Below, piece by piece: positions 44,553-50,155 of a stretch of 64,000 nucleotides of DNA; position 1 is the first letter of the stretch; each line of letters opens with the position of its first letter. Made by a program: the position numbers and the translations under genes. The notes beneath the pieces are model-generated. The model did not search any database. It saw nothing but the letters and a program-made list of their open reading frames with translations, and had not been told where the DNA came from. Location of the stretch: positions 96,001 through 160,000 of IMG/VR virus record IMGVR_UViG_3300049988_000245; one strand, written 5' to 3'. The stretch comes from a virus. Lineage: Duplodnaviria > Caudoviricetes.

Positions 44553-45284
44553 TCAGTCGTCGTCCTGGGGAATCGACCGGGGAGGTACCGGGACCCCATA
44601 GTAGGGATCGACCTCCTGCCGATCATACGGGGACGGCTCCCGGCGGGTCTCCGCTCGCACGTATGGGGGCGGAACCCGGCGCGGCTCTTCCAGGCTGAAC
44701 GTCGGGGGCTCTCGGCGCGGCTCCGCTTGAACGGTCCGTCTGGGAACCTCGCCGACCGGCTTAGGCTCGTACAGGGACAGAATTTCGTCCGGACGCTTCA
44801 ACGGCATCGCGCGGACCGTCTCGACCACCCTGGGGTAGCCTAGAGACTCCGCCACGCCTGATCGGCTCGCCACAGACGCCCGACCCATCTCGATCCCGTG
44901 GCAAGCGGTAAAATAGATGGCCGTGAAGTTCGCTGACTTGCGAATCGTCTCCGGTGGATCGGGATTGAACGGCGCGATCATCAGGGCGACCACCTTGCCC
45001 GGACGCTCTGCGATCAGCGTGGGATGGCGCTTCGAGCAGTACACGTAGGATTTTTCCTTCGCCGCTGCCTGCCGTCCTGCGTGGCTGGCCTTGTACATAT
45101 CGATGGAAACCTGTCGAAGCGTCCCATCGGGAATCTCCCGGACCACGCTGTTCTGGGTGATCTGGAACTCGTCGCACCCGTCCTTGTGGCACAGCGCGCG
45201 TACCAGATCGGGGCGCGGTCCTCCCGGCTCCGCATAGGCGTATGAAACTAGCAACACGGATGCTATGGCAGCGACGGCGCGCAT
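44553..45284 (-). CDS. secreted protein with Pro/Arg-rich tail
   Basis: Signal MRAVAAIASVLLVSYAYA; Cys pairs; repeated EPRR..PP C-terminus. Confidence 0.6.
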   Translation of the reverse strand: MRAVAAIASVLLVSYAYAEPGGPRPDLVRALCHKDGCDEFQITQNSVVREIPDGTLRQVSIDMYKASHAGRQAAAKEKSYVYCSKRHPTLIAERPGKVVALMIAPFNPDPPETIRKSANFTAIYFTACHGIEMGRASVASRSGVAESLGYPRVVETVRAMPLKRPDEILSLYEPKPVGEVPRRTVQAEPRREPPTFSLEEPRRVPPPYVRAETRREPSPYDRQEVDPYYGVPVPPRSIPQDDD

Positions 45285-45376
45285 AAAGTTCCCCCTTGGA
45301 ATGACACCCATCCATAGGCAAAAACTTTGCCGAGATCGAGGCGAATCCCGGACACAACGCGACAATAAATACCGTC

Positions 45377-46057
45377 ATGCGTTACCAAGAATTTGCCCGA
45401 CCCATTGTGAATGAGATCGAAACGAACGCCCAGATGGGCGATGACGCGTTTATTGATCATCTCCATAAAGATGACTTCAGCGGTCGTCAGTTGGACCTGT
45501 TCAGGGAAATCCCGTCGCTGGAGCCAGACATTCCACCGAACTATAAGTTCGTGGGTCGGCTCGGTGAATTCTTCGTCGCCAAACGGAACAAAGAACGCGG
45601 GAATCCCTACACCAGCTACGTATTCTTCAATCGAGATTCAGCACTCGGATATGTCTCGCTCGCCGCGTATGACCGGTCGGCCTCGCAGTATCCCGCCCAT
45701 GCCCCGGAGGCGCCCGAACTGTCCGGCATCGGACTTCGCATCCATGGGGTGCAAGTACAGCCGAAGTTCCGAGGTCAGGGCCTGGGTTTGAAAATGTACA
45801 AGTGGCTGTTGGAGAACGTCTGCGACTACTTGATGGCCGATGACGTACAGACTCCCGATGGCGTCGCGCTGTGGAAACGCCTCCAGGCGCAATCGAACAT
45901 CTTCACCGTCGAGGTCTGGGACGGTGAGAAGTTCGAATCTCGCTTCCGAAAGCGTGGGCGGGATTTTAATTACGTGTACGACAAATGCCACCTCATCCCA
46001 TGGGTAACGATCCCGTCGAAATACGAAATGGTTATCGAACATCCTGACAACAACTAA
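45377..46057 (+). CDS. GNAT-family acetyltransferase
   Basis: VQVQPKFRGQGLGLKMY acetyl-CoA motif, D..QTPDG..LW. Confidence 0.8.
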   Translation: MRYQEFARPIVNEIETNAQMGDDAFIDHLHKDDFSGRQLDLFREIPSLEPDIPPNYKFVGRLGEFFVAKRNKERGNPYTSYVFFNRDSALGYVSLAAYDRSASQYPAHAPEAPELSGIGLRIHGVQVQPKFRGQGLGLKMYKWLLENVCDYLMADDVQTPDGVALWKRLQAQSNIFTVEVWDGEKFESRFRKRGRDFNYVYDKCHLIPWVTIPSKYEMVIEHPDNN

Positions 46058-46359
46058 GCTGGATTCCCTCGTAGGATTCGTGTACCCCGCAGGGCATGCG
46101 ACACCTCCCTATAATCGGCTCCGTTCTCGTTGGCCTCTCGATCGTCCCCGCGCTCTACCTGGGCCTGCTTTACAGCCGTGGGCAGACCTTTCCGGGGATG
46201 CCTCGCTGGATGGTCCCGGTGAGTCCCACGGGGGTCGTGAGGCTCCCTGATCCGGTCGAATTGGTTGAGCCCATTCAGGTGGCCGTACTGGCGCCCCCGA
46301 AGTCTATTCAGGCACGTGCGGGTAAGCTAAAGTAGCCGCTGATCTCTCATGGATATCTC

Positions 46360-46638
46360 ATGGCCGTCGAATCGTGGACGCTGATCTTCTCCCTCCTGTT
46401 CCTCCAGCAGGAGAGCGGTACCCCAGCGAAAATCGAGCACATGCCACCGATCCTGGGAATCGAGTCGGAGAAACTGTGCACGGCGGCCAAGGACGCGATG
46501 ATCGACGCGTATGAGGGCGAGGCGACCGAGCCGATGGCCGACTACGAGCCTCCGAAGGATCAGCCGGACAAGGCTCAGCCGTTGGATGAGCAGTTCCACT
46601 TGATGCGCCCGATCGGGGTCTGCATCAAAGTGAGGTGA
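46360..46638 (+). CDS. small exported/membrane protein
   Basis: Hydrophobic N-terminus, C...K..C pattern. Confidence 0.45.
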   Translation: MAVESWTLIFSLLFLQQESGTPAKIEHMPPILGIESEKLCTAAKDAMIDAYEGEATEPMADYEPPKDQPDKAQPLDEQFHLMRPIGVCIKVR

Positions 46639-47029
46639 TACGCTCCTCGTAATGGAGCTTGCGGTGGCAGTTTGCGCAGAGAACAATGCATTTGGCGATC
46701 TCCCGCATGACACGTTTTCGCGCGGCTCGTGCGATCAGCGTGGCGACTCCGCCATCTTCCTTGTCGCCATTGGGATGGTGAAAATCGAGACAACCGGGGT
46801 GATTTTCTGGACAGCGCTCACATACAAGCGTTGACTTGTATTCGTGAAACCAAATCTTAGTTGTCTTCCTCTGAATAACTCTTTTCTTGAGATAAAAATC
46901 CTTATTTTCGAGGTAATGTTCTCGACGATAGGATTTTTGACAAACTTTACACTTTGATTGATGTCCGTTCCCACGCTTATTAAAGCAGGAAAACTCTTTC
47001 TGTTCTTTACAGTCACTGCATGTTCTCAT
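46625..47029 (-). CDS. HNH endonuclease (tRNA-cluster associated)
   Basis: CSDC..C..C N-terminal Zn motif, CERC..LDFHH, KCIVLCANCHRKLH; AT-rich. Confidence 0.9.
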   Translation of the reverse strand: MRTCSDCKEQKEFSCFNKRGNGHQSKCKVCQKSYRREHYLENKDFYLKKRVIQRKTTKIWFHEYKSTLVCERCPENHPGCLDFHHPNGDKEDGGVATLIARAARKRVMREIAKCIVLCANCHRKLHYEERITSL

Positions 47030-47061
47030 CCATTATTTATGTTGAGAACAGAACAGATATT

Positions 47062-47139
47062 TGGCGCGTCGTAACGGAGTCGAACCGATATTGCCCTGAG
47101 TGAAGGTCAGGTTTCCTAAGCCAATTAGAAGAACGACGC
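47062..47139 (-). tRNA. trnE: tRNA-Glu(TTC), C33 variant
   Basis: GCGTCGT/ACGACGC acceptor, anticodon loop CCTTCAC, TTCGA T-loop, encoded CCA. Confidence 0.88.
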
Positions 47140-47169
47140 ATTTCACCCGTCACGGTGAAAACTGGTAAA

Positions 47170-47245
47170 TGGCGCCCCCAGCCGAAGTCGAATCGGCGTC
47201 CCTGCACTGAGAATGCAGTATCCTGGGCCACTAGACGATGGGGGC
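47170..47245 (-). tRNA. trnE: tRNA-Glu(CTC)
   Basis: GCCCCCA/TGGGGGC acceptor, loop TTCTCAG, encoded CCA. Confidence 0.92.
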
Positions 47246-47247
47246 AT

Positions 47248-47322
47248 TGGCGCACACGACGAGGATCGAACTCGCGACAACCGCATCGACAGTGCGGTAC
47301 TCTACCACTGAGCTACGTGTGC
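47248..47322 (-). tRNA. trnD: tRNA-Asp(GTC)
   Basis: GCACACG/CGTGTGC acceptor, loop CTGTCGA, encoded CCA. Confidence 0.92.
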
Positions 47323-47365
47323 ATCTCGATCCCGTGGGATCAAGAAACTGGTAACCGGTAAGGCC

Positions 47366-47400
47366 AAAGAAAAAGGCCCAACCGGGGTGCGGTGGGCCTT
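47366..47400 (-). terminator. intrinsic terminator upstream of tRNA cluster
   Basis: AAGGCCCACCG-CACCC-CGGTTGGGCCTT-TTTCTTT. Confidence 0.75.
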
Positions 47401-47464
47401 GGATCAGATCGCTCAGAAGCGCTCAGATGGTCAGGTCACCGCGTTAGCGATGACCCACGAACGG

Positions 47465-47527
47465 TCACCGCTGGAAGGTATCTTCCTCGCGTTCATCAAG
47501 ACGGATGCTGGTGAAGTTCGTGTTCAT
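47465..47527 (-). CDS. 20-aa putative leader peptide MNTNFTSIRLDEREEDTFQR
   Basis: TAAATA-N5-ATG start; Asp/Glu run; followed by alternative hairpins and terminator. Confidence 0.5.
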   Translation of the reverse strand: MNTNFTSIRLDEREEDTFQR

Positions 47528-47806
47528 GATTCTATTTATGTCAGAGTGCTGAATCGGAGTCAACCAATTTCGTCAAACTTTTTTCACGAGGGGTGTTTGC
47601 CCTCGTAAAGGGCCACCGATCGTAGTGCGACGAGGACGGCCAGATTGACGAACATGACGAGAAGAGATGCCCCGCTGGGGTGCATCATGACGGCAGTGAG
47701 TGAGAACGAGATAAAAATGAGCCAAACCGAGACCCGGTTGGTGATAAGGAATCTCCCCATGGGAGCGCTCCGAGGTTGTCCCGCACCATCTAACGCGGGA
47801 CAATAT

Positions 47807-48199
47807 TTAGCTTGCGAGCACGGCAGCGCGGCGCGCGATAGCGAGGAACGTTCCGTTCTGGCAGGCCGAGGCAAGAAGCCCTTCGACGAACCTTTCTTGG
47901 CGGATCATCGCGGTGATGACCTTCCGGATTTCCTCCTCCGTGGCCACACTGAAGTCGGATTGGACCCGGTCGGCGTCCGCAGTATGAATCCATTCGGGCC
48001 ACGCAAATCCCTTCAGCATCAAGGGGTAGCAGGCATCGAGGAACGCAGACATATCCTTGCCGTGGTCGAACCACGGCATCGTCATGGTGTTCTCGGCGAC
48101 CGTCTCCCCGCCTGCCCACTTCCCGGAGTCAAACGTGCCTGCCTCCAGCGCGGGGATGAAAGCCGCAAGGGCTGCAAAATGCTCTTTCATGGTGCTCAC
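47807..48199 (-). CDS. DUF6508-like protein
   Basis: F.W..W, I.K.ITA.IRQERF.EG.L..A..NG..L.I.RR pattern. Confidence 0.65.
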   Translation of the reverse strand: MSTMKEHFAALAAFIPALEAGTFDSGKWAGGETVAENTMTMPWFDHGKDMSAFLDACYPLMLKGFAWPEWIHTADADRVQSDFSVATEEEIRKVITAMIRQERFVEGLLASACQNGTFLAIARRAAVLAS

Positions 48200-49137
48200 C
48201 TTAGACGGAGGGAATCACGCTTGGCCGTGACCCGATCGATGATTTTCTTGTCGATCGGGAATGTTCCGACCTCCGCCAGGATCGCGGTAGCCAGATAGTC
48301 GTCCGCGTAGACGATACCGGAGAACGGCTTCGCAGTGGGGCGCTTCGATCCGCGTGAACCGACACCCATCAACTGATCGTACAGGTTCCGCCACGCGCCA
48401 CCATCGATCACGACCCCACCGGGCTTCGTCGCGAGCTTCACGCTCAGGTTTCCGCTAACTCGGCTGAGGACGTTCGCAAGCTCGGGCGACGGCGCCGGTA
48501 GGGCCACACGGGCGGAACGCTCCTTCTTGTCCTTGCCCGCCCGCATGATCCGGGTGAGAACCCCTGTAGGACGGTTCCACAATAGGTGGATGAATATCTT
48601 CCAGTGCGTTTTCACGAATTTCGGGGACGCCGCATAGAAGGCCGCCGCCATCACTCCACCGAGTACACCCGCGAAGAAAACTAGAAACGACACCTTTCCG
48701 ACGTCGAGCCCGTCGAAGCGAAGGTGGGTAAATGAGCCTGATCGGGCGACCATCATGATGTAGACACCAACGATCCAGCAGAGACCAAACAGCGTGTACC
48801 ATGCGATCAGGCCGCTGACACGCTTTGCTTCCTTGACCGCGTTGATAGCAACGAACCCATCCGAATCGGGCTCGACCTGCCAGAGGTTCGATTCTTTGCA
48901 GATACTGTCCCACCACACATTAGGGAGGATTACCAACGGCGCCACGCCGCTCGCCGTGAGCCTGCTCTGAAGGCGTGCCGCCGCTTGTTCGTAATCCTTC
49001 GCGCTGAGTGTCCAGTCTTCGCTGGCCCTTTGCGGCGCCTCGACCGCGAACCCGCCGACGTACTTCACCGTGGTTGGTGTCGGACCCTGATCGATGGCGG
49101 AGCCGGTGACCTTCGAGAGGTAGGAAAAGTTCGACAT
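48196..49137 (-). CDS. two-TM membrane protein
   Basis: Two hydrophobic helices mid-protein; TAATG coupling to FKMRW gene. Confidence 0.6.
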   Translation of the reverse strand: MSNFSYLSKVTGSAIDQGPTPTTVKYVGGFAVEAPQRASEDWTLSAKDYEQAAARLQSRLTASGVAPLVILPNVWWDSICKESNLWQVEPDSDGFVAINAVKEAKRVSGLIAWYTLFGLCWIVGVYIMMVARSGSFTHLRFDGLDVGKVSFLVFFAGVLGGVMAAAFYAASPKFVKTHWKIFIHLLWNRPTGVLTRIMRAGKDKKERSARVALPAPSPELANVLSRVSGNLSVKLATKPGGVVIDGGAWRNLYDQLMGVGSRGSKRPTAKPFSGIVYADDYLATAILAEVGTFPIDKKIIDRVTAKRDSLRLR

Positions 49138-49391
49138 TAAATCCATCTCATCTTGAACGCGAAGGCGTCGTGCGTGGCGTAGAAATCCATAAAGATGCGA
49201 TGTTGATCGATCCCACCGAGAAGCGGACCCGCGACCACTCCGAAATGGCACTGATAGGCAATGTCATTTTCGTACATCCACTCTCGAACGGCATGGCTCG
49301 GACCCGTGAAATACCATCTTCGGTTAAGTGAACCTAACCGTGGCCGAAGCTCCATCTCGTGCTCCAGCCAAGGTAGGGCGACCGAATACAT
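49137..49391 (-). CDS. FKMRW-family small protein
   Basis: EWMYEN..FYATHDAFAFKMRWI. Confidence 0.8.
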   Translation of the reverse strand: MYSVALPWLEHEMELRPRLGSLNRRWYFTGPSHAVREWMYENDIAYQCHFGVVAGPLLGGIDQHRIFMDFYATHDAFAFKMRWI

Positions 49392-49393
49392 GG

Positions 49394-49651
49394 TTATCCC
49401 CAGCGCATTTTGAACGCGAATGCCTGATCGGCGGACATGGAAAGCGCAACCATGCCGGTGACTGATCGGTAGCAGTACCATCCCGGCGCGTTTTCGTCCA
49501 ACCAAATAAGCACGTTCGTCCGTAGGCTGAGTGGTAAGCTCCCCCATTCCTCTGCTGGTCCATATGCGATACCGACGACCTGCGGATGACTCAGATCATC
49601 AATAAAGGTGCGCATGAGGCCCGTGTGAGGGGGAACGGATTGGAATCTCAT
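49394..49651 (-). CDS. FKMRW-family small protein
   Basis: WLDENA..MSADQAFAFKMRWG. Confidence 0.8.
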   Translation of the reverse strand: MRFQSVPPHTGLMRTFIDDLSHPQVVGIAYGPAEEWGSLPLSLRTNVLIWLDENAPGWYCYRSVTGMVALSMSADQAFAFKMRWG

Positions 49652-49789
49652 AGCTCCGTTCTAACAGATTTCAGTAAATTTGGTCGATCAGGATTGTGGA
49701 TTGGTTAACAGCGCATAGATTAACTCCCGAGCAATCCGGTGCAGGATTCGACATAAATACATAGCACACTCCCGCACTGGAGACCTATC

Positions 49790-50155
49790 ATGAAGCCTAT
49801 TTCGAACCAGAACTTCGGCAATCTTGCCGGTAAGATCAAGATGACCTACCACAACGGTACCGCCGTTGTTGACGGTTACATTGTCAAGCAGATCGGCACT
49901 GGCCGTTTCGTTTGCGCGCCCCTGGCGAACTCGACCACGCAGAGCACGGTCGTTCTCGCATCCACCACCCCGGCTGCGACCACCCTGACCCCCGGCTACG
50001 GCACGATCAAGGGCTCGACCTTCGGTTCGAATGCTGTTGAGTACGTCTCGGTCATCCGTGGCGCGACCTGCGTGACAACTGGTGGCGTCAGCTACTCGTG
50101 GAATATCGGTGGTGCTTCCAAGCCGGGCAACCTCGGCCTCTCGTCCATCATCTAA
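49790..50155 (+). CDS. small late/structural protein
   Basis: TAAATA box at 49754, GGAG SD, Thr/Gly-rich. Confidence 0.55.
   Translation: MKPISNQNFGNLAGKIKMTYHNGTAVVDGYIVKQIGTGRFVCAPLANSTTQSTVVLASTTPAATTLTPGYGTIKGSTFGSNAVEYVSVIRGATCVTTGGVSYSWNIGGASKPGNLGLSSII

Follow-up and report, generated by a model that had tools for sequence, protein, structure and literature searches.

The window described here is a stretch of 64,000 nt from a tailed virus (Caudoviricetes; IMG/VR record IMGVR_UViG_3300049988_000245), corresponding to bases 96001–160000 of a single 265,895 bp contig with 56% G+C. On its minus strand, a block of three phage tRNA genes, encoding tRNA-Asp, tRNA-Glu(CUC) and tRNA-Glu(UUC), is preceded by a leader consisting of a promoter, a 20-codon open reading frame (ORF) in which Asp and Glu codons cluster, several predicted RNA helices that exclude one another, and an intrinsic terminator. 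We propose that this leader is probably a ribosome-mediated transcription attenuator that sets the output of the three tRNAs. The parts of the leader, their conservation, and the match between its codons and the downstream anticodons are established by the sequence and by comparison with relatives; the transcript start, translation of the ORF, the direction of the switch and the signal that it would sense are inferred.

Anatomy of the leader

The features of the region are listed below in order of transcription; G001 is a distantly related phage described in the following section.

47558–47563 (−): −35-like box TTGACT, read from the sequence
47533–47540 (−): CATAAATA box, a putative −10 element (CATAAA, preceded by TGa) overlapping a T4-late-type TAAATA box
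47465–47527 (−): leader ORF, 20 codons and TGA, MNTNFTSIRLDEREEDTFQR, from the sequence, with the frame kept in G001
47510–47522 (−): segment 0, CACGAAC-U-UCACC (codons 2–6), the 5′ strand of helix P1, from minimum free energy helices
47480–47497 (−): regulatory codons GAT GAA CGC GAG GAA GAT (codons 11–16), from the sequence
47456–47471 (−): segment 1 and the loop GTTCGTG, pairing with segment 0; segment 1 alternatively pairs with segment 2
47447–47455 (−): segment 2, GGTCATCGC, pairing with segment 1 or segment 3
47434–47442 (−): segment 3, GCGGTGACC, pairing with segment 2, or through GCGGUG with CACCGC of the terminator 5′ arm
47403–47428 (−): hairpin H3, between segment 3 and the terminator, from folding
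47366–47400 (−): intrinsic terminator, with stem 47400–47373 and U-tract 47374–47366, from folding
47328–47341 (−): small palindromic hairpin GATCC-CACG-GGATC, ending 5 nt before tRNA-Asp, from the sequence and relatives
47248–47322 (−): tRNA-Asp(GTC), ARAGORN and Rfam
47170–47245 (−): tRNA-Glu(CTC), ARAGORN and Rfam
47062–47139 (−): tRNA-Glu(TTC), with C at position 33, ARAGORN and Rfam

All of the parts that an initial annotation of the window, made from the sequence alone, had noted (the box, the ORF, the D-E-R-E-E-D codons, the segments, the terminator and the tRNAs) are present at these positions, and the arrangement is far from chance. Asp or Glu is specified at five of six consecutive codons, with at least one codon for each downstream anticodon (GUC, UUC and CUC). 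Genome-wide, just 3 of 2,996 short ATG ORFs (10–40 codons), the leader ORF included, have a run of six codons with at least five for Asp or Glu. The stop codon of the leader ORF (TGA, 47467–47465) lies inside segment 1 (GCGGTGACC, 47471–47463), and the 9-nt sequence recurs as segment 3 with its complement, segment 2, between the two copies, an arrangement that a single one of 20,000 dinucleotide-shuffled leaders reproduces. As a whole, the leader fold is markedly more stable than those of shuffled sequences (z = −4.3). The folds also reveal an extra competing helix, P1, in which segment 0 (47522–47510) pairs with segment 1 and the loop that follows it (47469–47456), so that the whole ORF is enclosed. 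The terminator reads GGCCCACCG-CACCC-CGG-U-UGGGCC (47398–47375) followed by UUUUUCUUU (47374–47366), and it is present in every fold. The proposal that segment 2 could pair with either segment 1 or segment 3 holds in the folds and the two helices are kept in G001, but the pairing proposed for segment 3 with the terminator arm spans few base pairs and shows no covariation.

The promoter is unusual in its position. TAAATA (47538–47533) is separated by five bases from the ATG at 47527, and because TTGACT stands 17 nt before CATAAA, the TAAATA box is best read as a promoter −10 element and not as a ribosome-binding site. The initial annotation had listed TAAATA-N5-ATG, and this is present as described, with the qualification that it appears to be a promoter fused to a start codon. 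The predicted promoter is TTGACT-N17-(TG)aCATAAATA, in which the −10 box would double as a T4-late-type box; transcription would start at or next to the A of the ATG, the message would be leaderless, and the mini-ORF would be translated from its 5′ end. TTGAC and the 17-nt spacing are kept in a close relative, Logan contig L001 (TTGACC), in sequencing run X25 (TTGACG) and in six G001 leader promoters, and the spacer sequence varies. In the relatives the bases directly 5′ of the ATG also vary, and conservation sets in at the ATG. The box resembles T4 late promoters (TATAAATA at −13 to −6) in that a TAAATA-type element would place the start 6 nt downstream; it differs in being CATAAATA, in having TTGAC at 17 nt in sigma-70 style, and in its fusion to the start codon. 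The conserved TTGAC at this distance points to use of sigma-70 as well.

Across the genome, TAAATA-N5-ATG opens 15 ORFs of at least 40 amino acids and a 4-nt spacing opens six more, compared with a chance expectation of about 1.4 of the 88 TAAATA boxes having an ATG at any one fixed spacing. Promoter-fused or late leaderless messages thus seem to be a regular feature of this phage. TAAATA boxes in the window include those at 45366, 47039 and 47538, and the gap of 4–5 nt leaves no room for a ribosome-binding site.

Conservation of the leader and parallel cases in other phages

In the close relative L001 the neighbouring protein is just 71% identical, yet every base of the leader between the −10 box and the end of segment 3 is the same (100% identity); tRNA-Asp is also identical. 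Further variants were taken from contigs of four more sequencing runs (X25–X28). In runs X25–X27 segment 2 is GGTCGCCGC, and its pairing with segments 1 and 3 is kept in both cases; segment 3 is unchanged in all relatives. One pair in hairpin H3 is U-A in the window, U-G in L001 and C-G in X28. The terminator differs among the close relatives in its loop only, and the spacer 3′ of it is variable. These variants are proof of selection on the RNA but cannot show coding. The leader module is not universal in the clade, because a more distant locus (L081, JGI [Joint Genome Institute] contig Ga0456065_0021052, with a DUF6508 protein 55% identical) lacks both the leader and the tRNAs and has a convergent metallophosphatase gene in their place. 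DUF6508 homologues were tried as a route to further leaders, and yielded only this leaderless locus and bacterial genes.

Evidence for the reading frame comes from G001, a 607,744 bp IMG/VR phage in which a leader homologue adjoins a topoisomerase gene whose product is 73% identical, and precedes genes for tRNA-Asp(GTC), Glu(CTC), Glu(TTC) and Glu(TTC). The homologue has the promoter sequence TTGACG-N17-TATATAAATA-ggatc-ATG, and its ORF (MSTMHTIMAFTASDEREEDIFSR) keeps the start and frame across a 9-nt (3-codon) indel. The peptide end DEREEDxFxR is kept and the N-terminal half has diverged; the first Asp codon is GAC in G001 and GAT in the window, a synonymous difference, and the stop is TAA in place of TGA, which removes one pair from helix 1:2. 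The RNA architecture persists, although much of it is formed by different sequence. The P1 equivalent is formed by AUGAGCACG at the 5′ end with CGUGCUCAU just past the stop, where the window has CACGAAC:GUUCGUG. Segment 2 is GGTCACCGC; helix 1:2 is longer (GCGGUAACCGUG with CACGGUCACCGC) and helix 2:3 is perfect. The P2 hairpin is different and P3 is retained through G-U pairs. An unrelated 8 bp UUCG hairpin takes the place of H3, and the terminator, also different, is in the same position. RNAalifold was limited by register shifts in the three-sequence alignment. Because G001 keeps both frame and helices despite this divergence, both appear to be under selection, and together they are the signature of a ribosome-dependent attenuator. 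Conservation ahead of Asp/Glu tRNA clusters in relatives had been suggested as a check, and it is borne out both by the near-identical L001 leader and by the start, frame, stop and D-E-R-E-E-D codons of G001.

We inspected the DNA upstream of every tRNA block in G001, which has 56 tRNA genes. Five further blocks stand behind the same type of promoter, a mini-ORF and a terminator, and the mini-ORFs are mutually unrelated:

MMMNRNNSNNIEGHA: before Asn, Asn
..SHQHSHH..: before His
..VTTTVVIITTV..: before Ile, Thr(CGU), Thr(UGU), Thr(GGU), Val(GAC)
..LFNKRFWRRVR..: before Phe, Leu(CAA), Trp, Arg(ACG), Arg(UCG), Lys(CUU), Lys(UUU), Val(UAC)
..LYPMPCYP..: before Tyr, Pro(UGG), Leu(GAG), Pro(CGG), Met, Cys, Pro(GGG), Cys

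The match extends to individual codons; ..LYPMPCYP.. is written CUU UAC CCA AUG CCG UGC UAU CCC, so that the three Pro isoacceptors are each represented by a codon of their own. When single leaders are compared with phage codon usage by binomial test, p ranges from 0.085 to 7.6e-5 (Fisher combined p = 1.6e-10), and the true pairing of leaders with blocks ranks best of 720 permutations. Two other G001 mini-ORFs, before tRNA-Met(CAT) and tRNA-Leu(UAA), have no convincing codon match and were excluded from these statistics. The sole G001 leader with a 5′ untranslated region has a GAGGAA ribosome-binding site 7 nt before its ATG, which argues that the G001 leader ORFs are meant to be translated. 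Four of the leaders have a strong antiterminator strand (−16 to −20 kcal/mol), much stronger than that of the Asp/Glu leaders, within the ORF and directly after the regulatory codons. By comparison, single tRNA genes in G001 and in the window genome have a promoter directly upstream, and the other tRNAs of the window genome lack a leader. We note that the leader of the Phe/Leu/Trp/Arg/Lys block is followed by tandem terminators with nearly the same stem (GCCCUCC..GGAGGGU/C; G001:C1:136100-138400, ~760–830).

The cultured Caulobacter phage phiCbK, a siphovirus, provides a second example, with three tRNA blocks behind mini-ORFs and terminators annotated by the depositors (leader and terminator units at JX100813 48081–48166, 49540–49769 and 51341–51502). 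Cognate codons make up 21/44 and 10/31 of two of these mini-ORFs and a weak 3/19 of that ahead of the Glu/Asp block, compared with 0–3 for mismatched pairs; in the Glu/Asp leader, the 5′ arm of the terminator is inside the ORF. The triplets GAA CGC GAG (E-R-E) are common to the Glu/Asp leaders of phiCbK (JX100813 48081–48166), the window (47480–47497) and G001 (L087 1552–1569), and may point to a single origin of the module or to a structural requirement that the three leaders have in common. The window leader is like the G001 and phiCbK leaders in its order of promoter, mini-ORF spelling the codons of the block, terminator and tRNA block. It differs in being small and confined to Asp/Glu, and in having an exact 9-nt repeat around its complement where others have an antiterminator strand inside the ORF. 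The central proposal of the initial annotation, a translated and codon-matched leader gating a terminator, is thus strongly supported both by the G001 homologue and by independent parallel leaders.

Other searches for relatives recovered little. There is no match among GenBank phages for the region or the neighbouring protein (megablast, blastn, tblastn); exact and semi-exact leader patterns have no match in IMG/VR, where a codon-degenerate pattern found G001 alone; and a 30-mer from the leader has no match in JGI metagenomes or in GTDB genomes. A looser hairpin pattern gave 33 loci in JGI metagenomes and 46 in GTDB genomes, mostly from high-GC Actinobacteria, which we treat as chance; by blastn, three of them match the leader over 45 nt that span the hairpin pattern used in the search, and there is no other similarity to the leader. 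A 98-codon open frame on the opposite strand, used as bait against short contigs, recovered none. The sequencing runs that hold this stretch of the window are mostly leaf, phyllosphere and silage metagenomes, with no RNA run among them.

Switch modelling and competing explanations

The attenuator is envisaged to work as follows. With a ribosome absent or finished, helices 0:1 and 2:3 and the terminator would form, and transcription would end before the tRNAs. When charged tRNA-Asp or tRNA-Glu is scarce, the first ribosome would stall on GAU GAA (CGC) GAG GAA GAU and keep segments 0 and 1 apart; segment 1 would then take segment 2, and the freed segment 3 would pair with CACCGC before the 3′ arm of the terminator is made, so that the polymerase continues into the tRNA genes. 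If instead the ribosome arrives at the stop, it would cover segment 1 and the loop and leave segment 2 free, giving 2:3 and the terminator. P1 would close the start site once the region past the stop is transcribed, such that the first ribosome alone is read out; in the G001 homologue and two other leaders P1 includes the AUG itself. The net effect would be negative feedback on decoding capacity for the codons of these three tRNAs.

We modelled this by folding the transcript up to the terminator loop, with a mask over all RNA between the 5′ end and a point 11 nt beyond the first nucleotide of the codon in the A site. With a ribosome on any of the Asp or Glu codons of the window leader, the best fold contains 1:2 and segment 3:CACCGC, and the terminator arm is paired upstream with probability 0.72; with a ribosome at the stop 2:3 forms, the arm is free and this probability is 0.29. 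The proposed logic, in which stalling gives read-through and arrival at the stop gives termination, is thus reproduced by the folding. For the G001 homologue the corresponding values are 0.64 and 0.39, and in the other five G001 leaders the arm-capture value likewise drops with the ribosome at the stop. When the RNA between ribosome and arm is shuffled, the difference between stalled and stop states is matched by 3 of 300 shuffles for the window and 7 of 300 for G001. This geometry leaves little room, because the front of a stop-bound ribosome falls exactly where segment 2 begins; when the mask was extended by 3 nt, the window leader no longer showed a difference between the two states.

Several observations weigh against an attenuator of this kind. 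First, equilibrium folds keep the terminator at every ribosome position, and because of this the switch must be kinetic; the trp attenuator is likewise kinetic, and we assume the same for the window leader. Second, the antiterminator pairing of segment 3 with the terminator arm amounts to just 6 bp in the window leader and to 4 solid bp in G001, which makes it the weakest link of the proposal. Third, the codon test over the whole ORF of the window leader is weak by itself (5/19, p = 0.07), and the codon match owes its significance to how closely the codons cluster and to the parallel leaders. Fourth, among the close relatives the 63-nt ORF has a single change, which is non-synonymous (Ile8 to Thr), and zero synonymous ones; from the sequences, the constraint acts on nucleotides and not on the peptide alone. 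This freeze may arise where constraints on coding and on pairing overlap, or from a further role of the terminated RNA. Finally, a ATAAAATA motif that might act as a bypass promoter lies between the terminator and tRNA-Asp of G001. The window has no motif like ATAAAATA in this position, and a separate tRNA promoter within 47322–47366, about which the initial annotation had been concerned, was searched for: no consensus promoter is present between the terminator and tRNA-Asp (47366–47322, examined for consensus-like sites only).

In an alternative that we consider unlikely, the region is a constitutive structured leader or a small RNA of ~160 nt, a leaky terminator allows a fixed partial read-through, and the ORF is incidental. 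The fold is indeed very stable (z = −4.3), the hairpin covariation reflects selection on RNA structure, and the 5′ 63 nt of the close relatives, with no synonymous changes, are held more tightly than the downstream hairpins. Small stable RNAs also occur within the tRNA clusters of T4-type phages. However, a constitutive RNA leaves unexplained the survival of frame, start and stop in G001 over a 9-nt indel and a TGA/TAA difference, the exact 9-nt repeat flanking its complement (1 in 20,000 shuffles), and the five G001 and three phiCbK leaders that spell the codons of their own blocks.

It is similarly improbable that the leader depends on translation but is not specific for Asp and Glu, acting as a general sensor of capacity or coupling, with reversed polarity, or through a trans-acting RNA or peptide. 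The codon-by-codon match to anticodons, including the three Pro isoacceptors in G001, is hard to explain in this way, as is the classic layout of four G001 leaders in which the antiterminator strand directly follows the regulatory codons. The antiterminator is nonetheless weak and the outcome hangs on the ribosome footprint, as the effect of the 3-nt longer mask on the window leader illustrates; the position of the phiCbK Glu/Asp terminator 5′ arm within the ORF permits other logic, and the nucleotide-level conservation of the ORF hints at an added RNA function. For Sinorhizobium trpL, an attenuator RNA and its leader peptide are reported to act in trans (PMC7968998, PMC7298713).

Ribosome-free sensing in the manner of a riboswitch or T-box, with a P1-P2-P3 junction binding a ligand, a protein or tRNAs and the triplets pairing with anticodons, is very unlikely: the conserved Y-shaped 5′ domain, more conserved than the expression platform with which its closing helix competes, is typical of aptamers, but no Rfam family including T-box matches at E ≤ 1, the triplets lie in one frame that runs from a start at the 5′ end to a stop and is kept across an indel, and other leaders have 8–11 consecutive cognate codons, one of them with a ribosome-binding site.

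Relation to known systems and neighbouring features

The attenuator proposed for the window is, as judged from its sequence, of the leader-peptide type represented by trp, his, thr and ilv; it is not a T-box and belongs to no Rfam family. Leader-peptide attenuators are familiar from proteobacterial amino-acid operons, and include trpL, hisL, pheL, leuL and the multivalent thrL and ilvL. The window leader shares with the trpL type a promoter-proximal mini-ORF with a run of regulatory codons, a stop in or near the pairing segment that comes first, a predicted series of helices that exclude one another and lead up to an intrinsic terminator, and termination as the expected default without translation; the mixed-codon leaders of G001 are paralleled by the multivalent thrL and ilvL. 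It differs in that its targets are tRNA genes and not enzymes, such that the supply of a decoder would be sensed and the decoder itself would be the output. It also differs in its leaderless message with a promoter fused to the ATG, its five pairing elements with an inserted hairpin, and its short antiterminator.

Attenuation of translation components has precedents. One is the pheST attenuator of E. coli, with its pheM leader peptide. A second is found in Firmicutes, where hisS paralogues are reported to be preceded by a His leader (PMC2965389). These are similar in being leader-peptide attenuation of a translation component for the same amino acid, and they differ in that the genes encode aminoacyl-tRNA synthetases. 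A possible closer precedent, an E. coli tRNA-Phe gene with a Phe leader, was rejected, as pheV in MG1655 has a promoter only and no leader ORF. The initial annotation knew of no described leader-peptide attenuator for phage tRNA genes, and a full-text literature search agrees, finding no paper on leader-peptide attenuation of tRNA genes in phages or bacteria.

T-box RNAs bind uncharged tRNA directly through a single specifier codon and need no ribosome. They are similar to the window leader in that transcription attenuation reads the state of a specific tRNA and acts on genes of the same amino-acid pathway, but the triplets of the window leader form a conserved reading frame, and the T-box covariance model (RF00230) has no match in 45000–50000 at E ≤ 1. 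An Rfam cmscan of this interval at the same threshold returned the three tRNAs, two antisense tRNA artefacts, a sub-threshold mmgR, and nothing else. The mmgR/suhB small RNA (RF00519) was rejected, with 22.6 bits compared with a gathering threshold of 41 (E = 0.21), and it covers H3 and the terminator only.

If the attenuator reading is correct, a classic mechanism would have a new class of target, tRNA genes, and a new sensed quantity. The phage would gauge decoding speed codon by codon and replenish only those decoders that are scarce. The reasons for phage tRNA genes are debated, and current proposals are codon compensation and escape from tRNA-targeting defences (eLife 2023 PMC10264068; Nat Commun 2024 PMC11555353). 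The leaders would offer a direct read-out of tRNA supply in infection and predict which host stresses or defences turn phage tRNA genes on, and they are potentially useful as reporters, serving as compact and orthogonal ‘codon-speed sensors’. A broader view, which we advance tentatively and regard as somewhat doubtful, is that codon-‘barcoded’ attenuators are a general tRNA homeostat of large phages, that the Asp/Glu module is an old mobile unit, and that the 160-nt RNA also acts in trans. A homeostat of this type, with each tRNA block transcribed only where the pioneer ribosome is slow on the codons of that block, would let a phage offset host tRNA shortage, shut-off or cleavage by defence nucleases in real time.

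Several features of the tRNA block and its surroundings deserve mention. The palindrome between the terminator and tRNA-Asp is kept in L001 and X27, with the sole change being in the L001 loop (CACG versus TACG), and it may serve in processing or as a site for a protein. In tRNA-Glu(UUC) at 47062–47139 the anticodon loop is CCUUCAC, with C33 in place of the near-universal U; U33 is present in the L001 and G001 homologues and in a second tRNA-Glu(UUC) of the same genome (genome 224539–224614).

Directly 3′ of the tRNAs is an ORF of 134 amino acids (46625–47029, minus strand) that begins MRTCSDCKEQKEFSCF..CKVC, with two Cys pairs, and has its own CATAAATA-N4-ATG. By sequence it looks like a zinc-finger or homing-endonuclease-type insert; a label of HNH endonuclease was dropped, there being no Pfam match, and a Pfam scan of six further neighbouring ORFs also gave no match. 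Between the DUF6508 gene and the leader promoter is a 58-codon hydrophobic ORF (MGRFLITNRVSVWLIF..., 47584–47760, minus strand), which is missing in L001, where the DUF6508 gene abuts the promoter. Elsewhere in the genome, ARAGORN identifies two adjacent tRNAs with CUA anticodons (amber-suppressor type) and a permuted tmRNA-like gene (genome 59598–59752 and 91133–91526), and G001 likewise has two CUA tRNAs.

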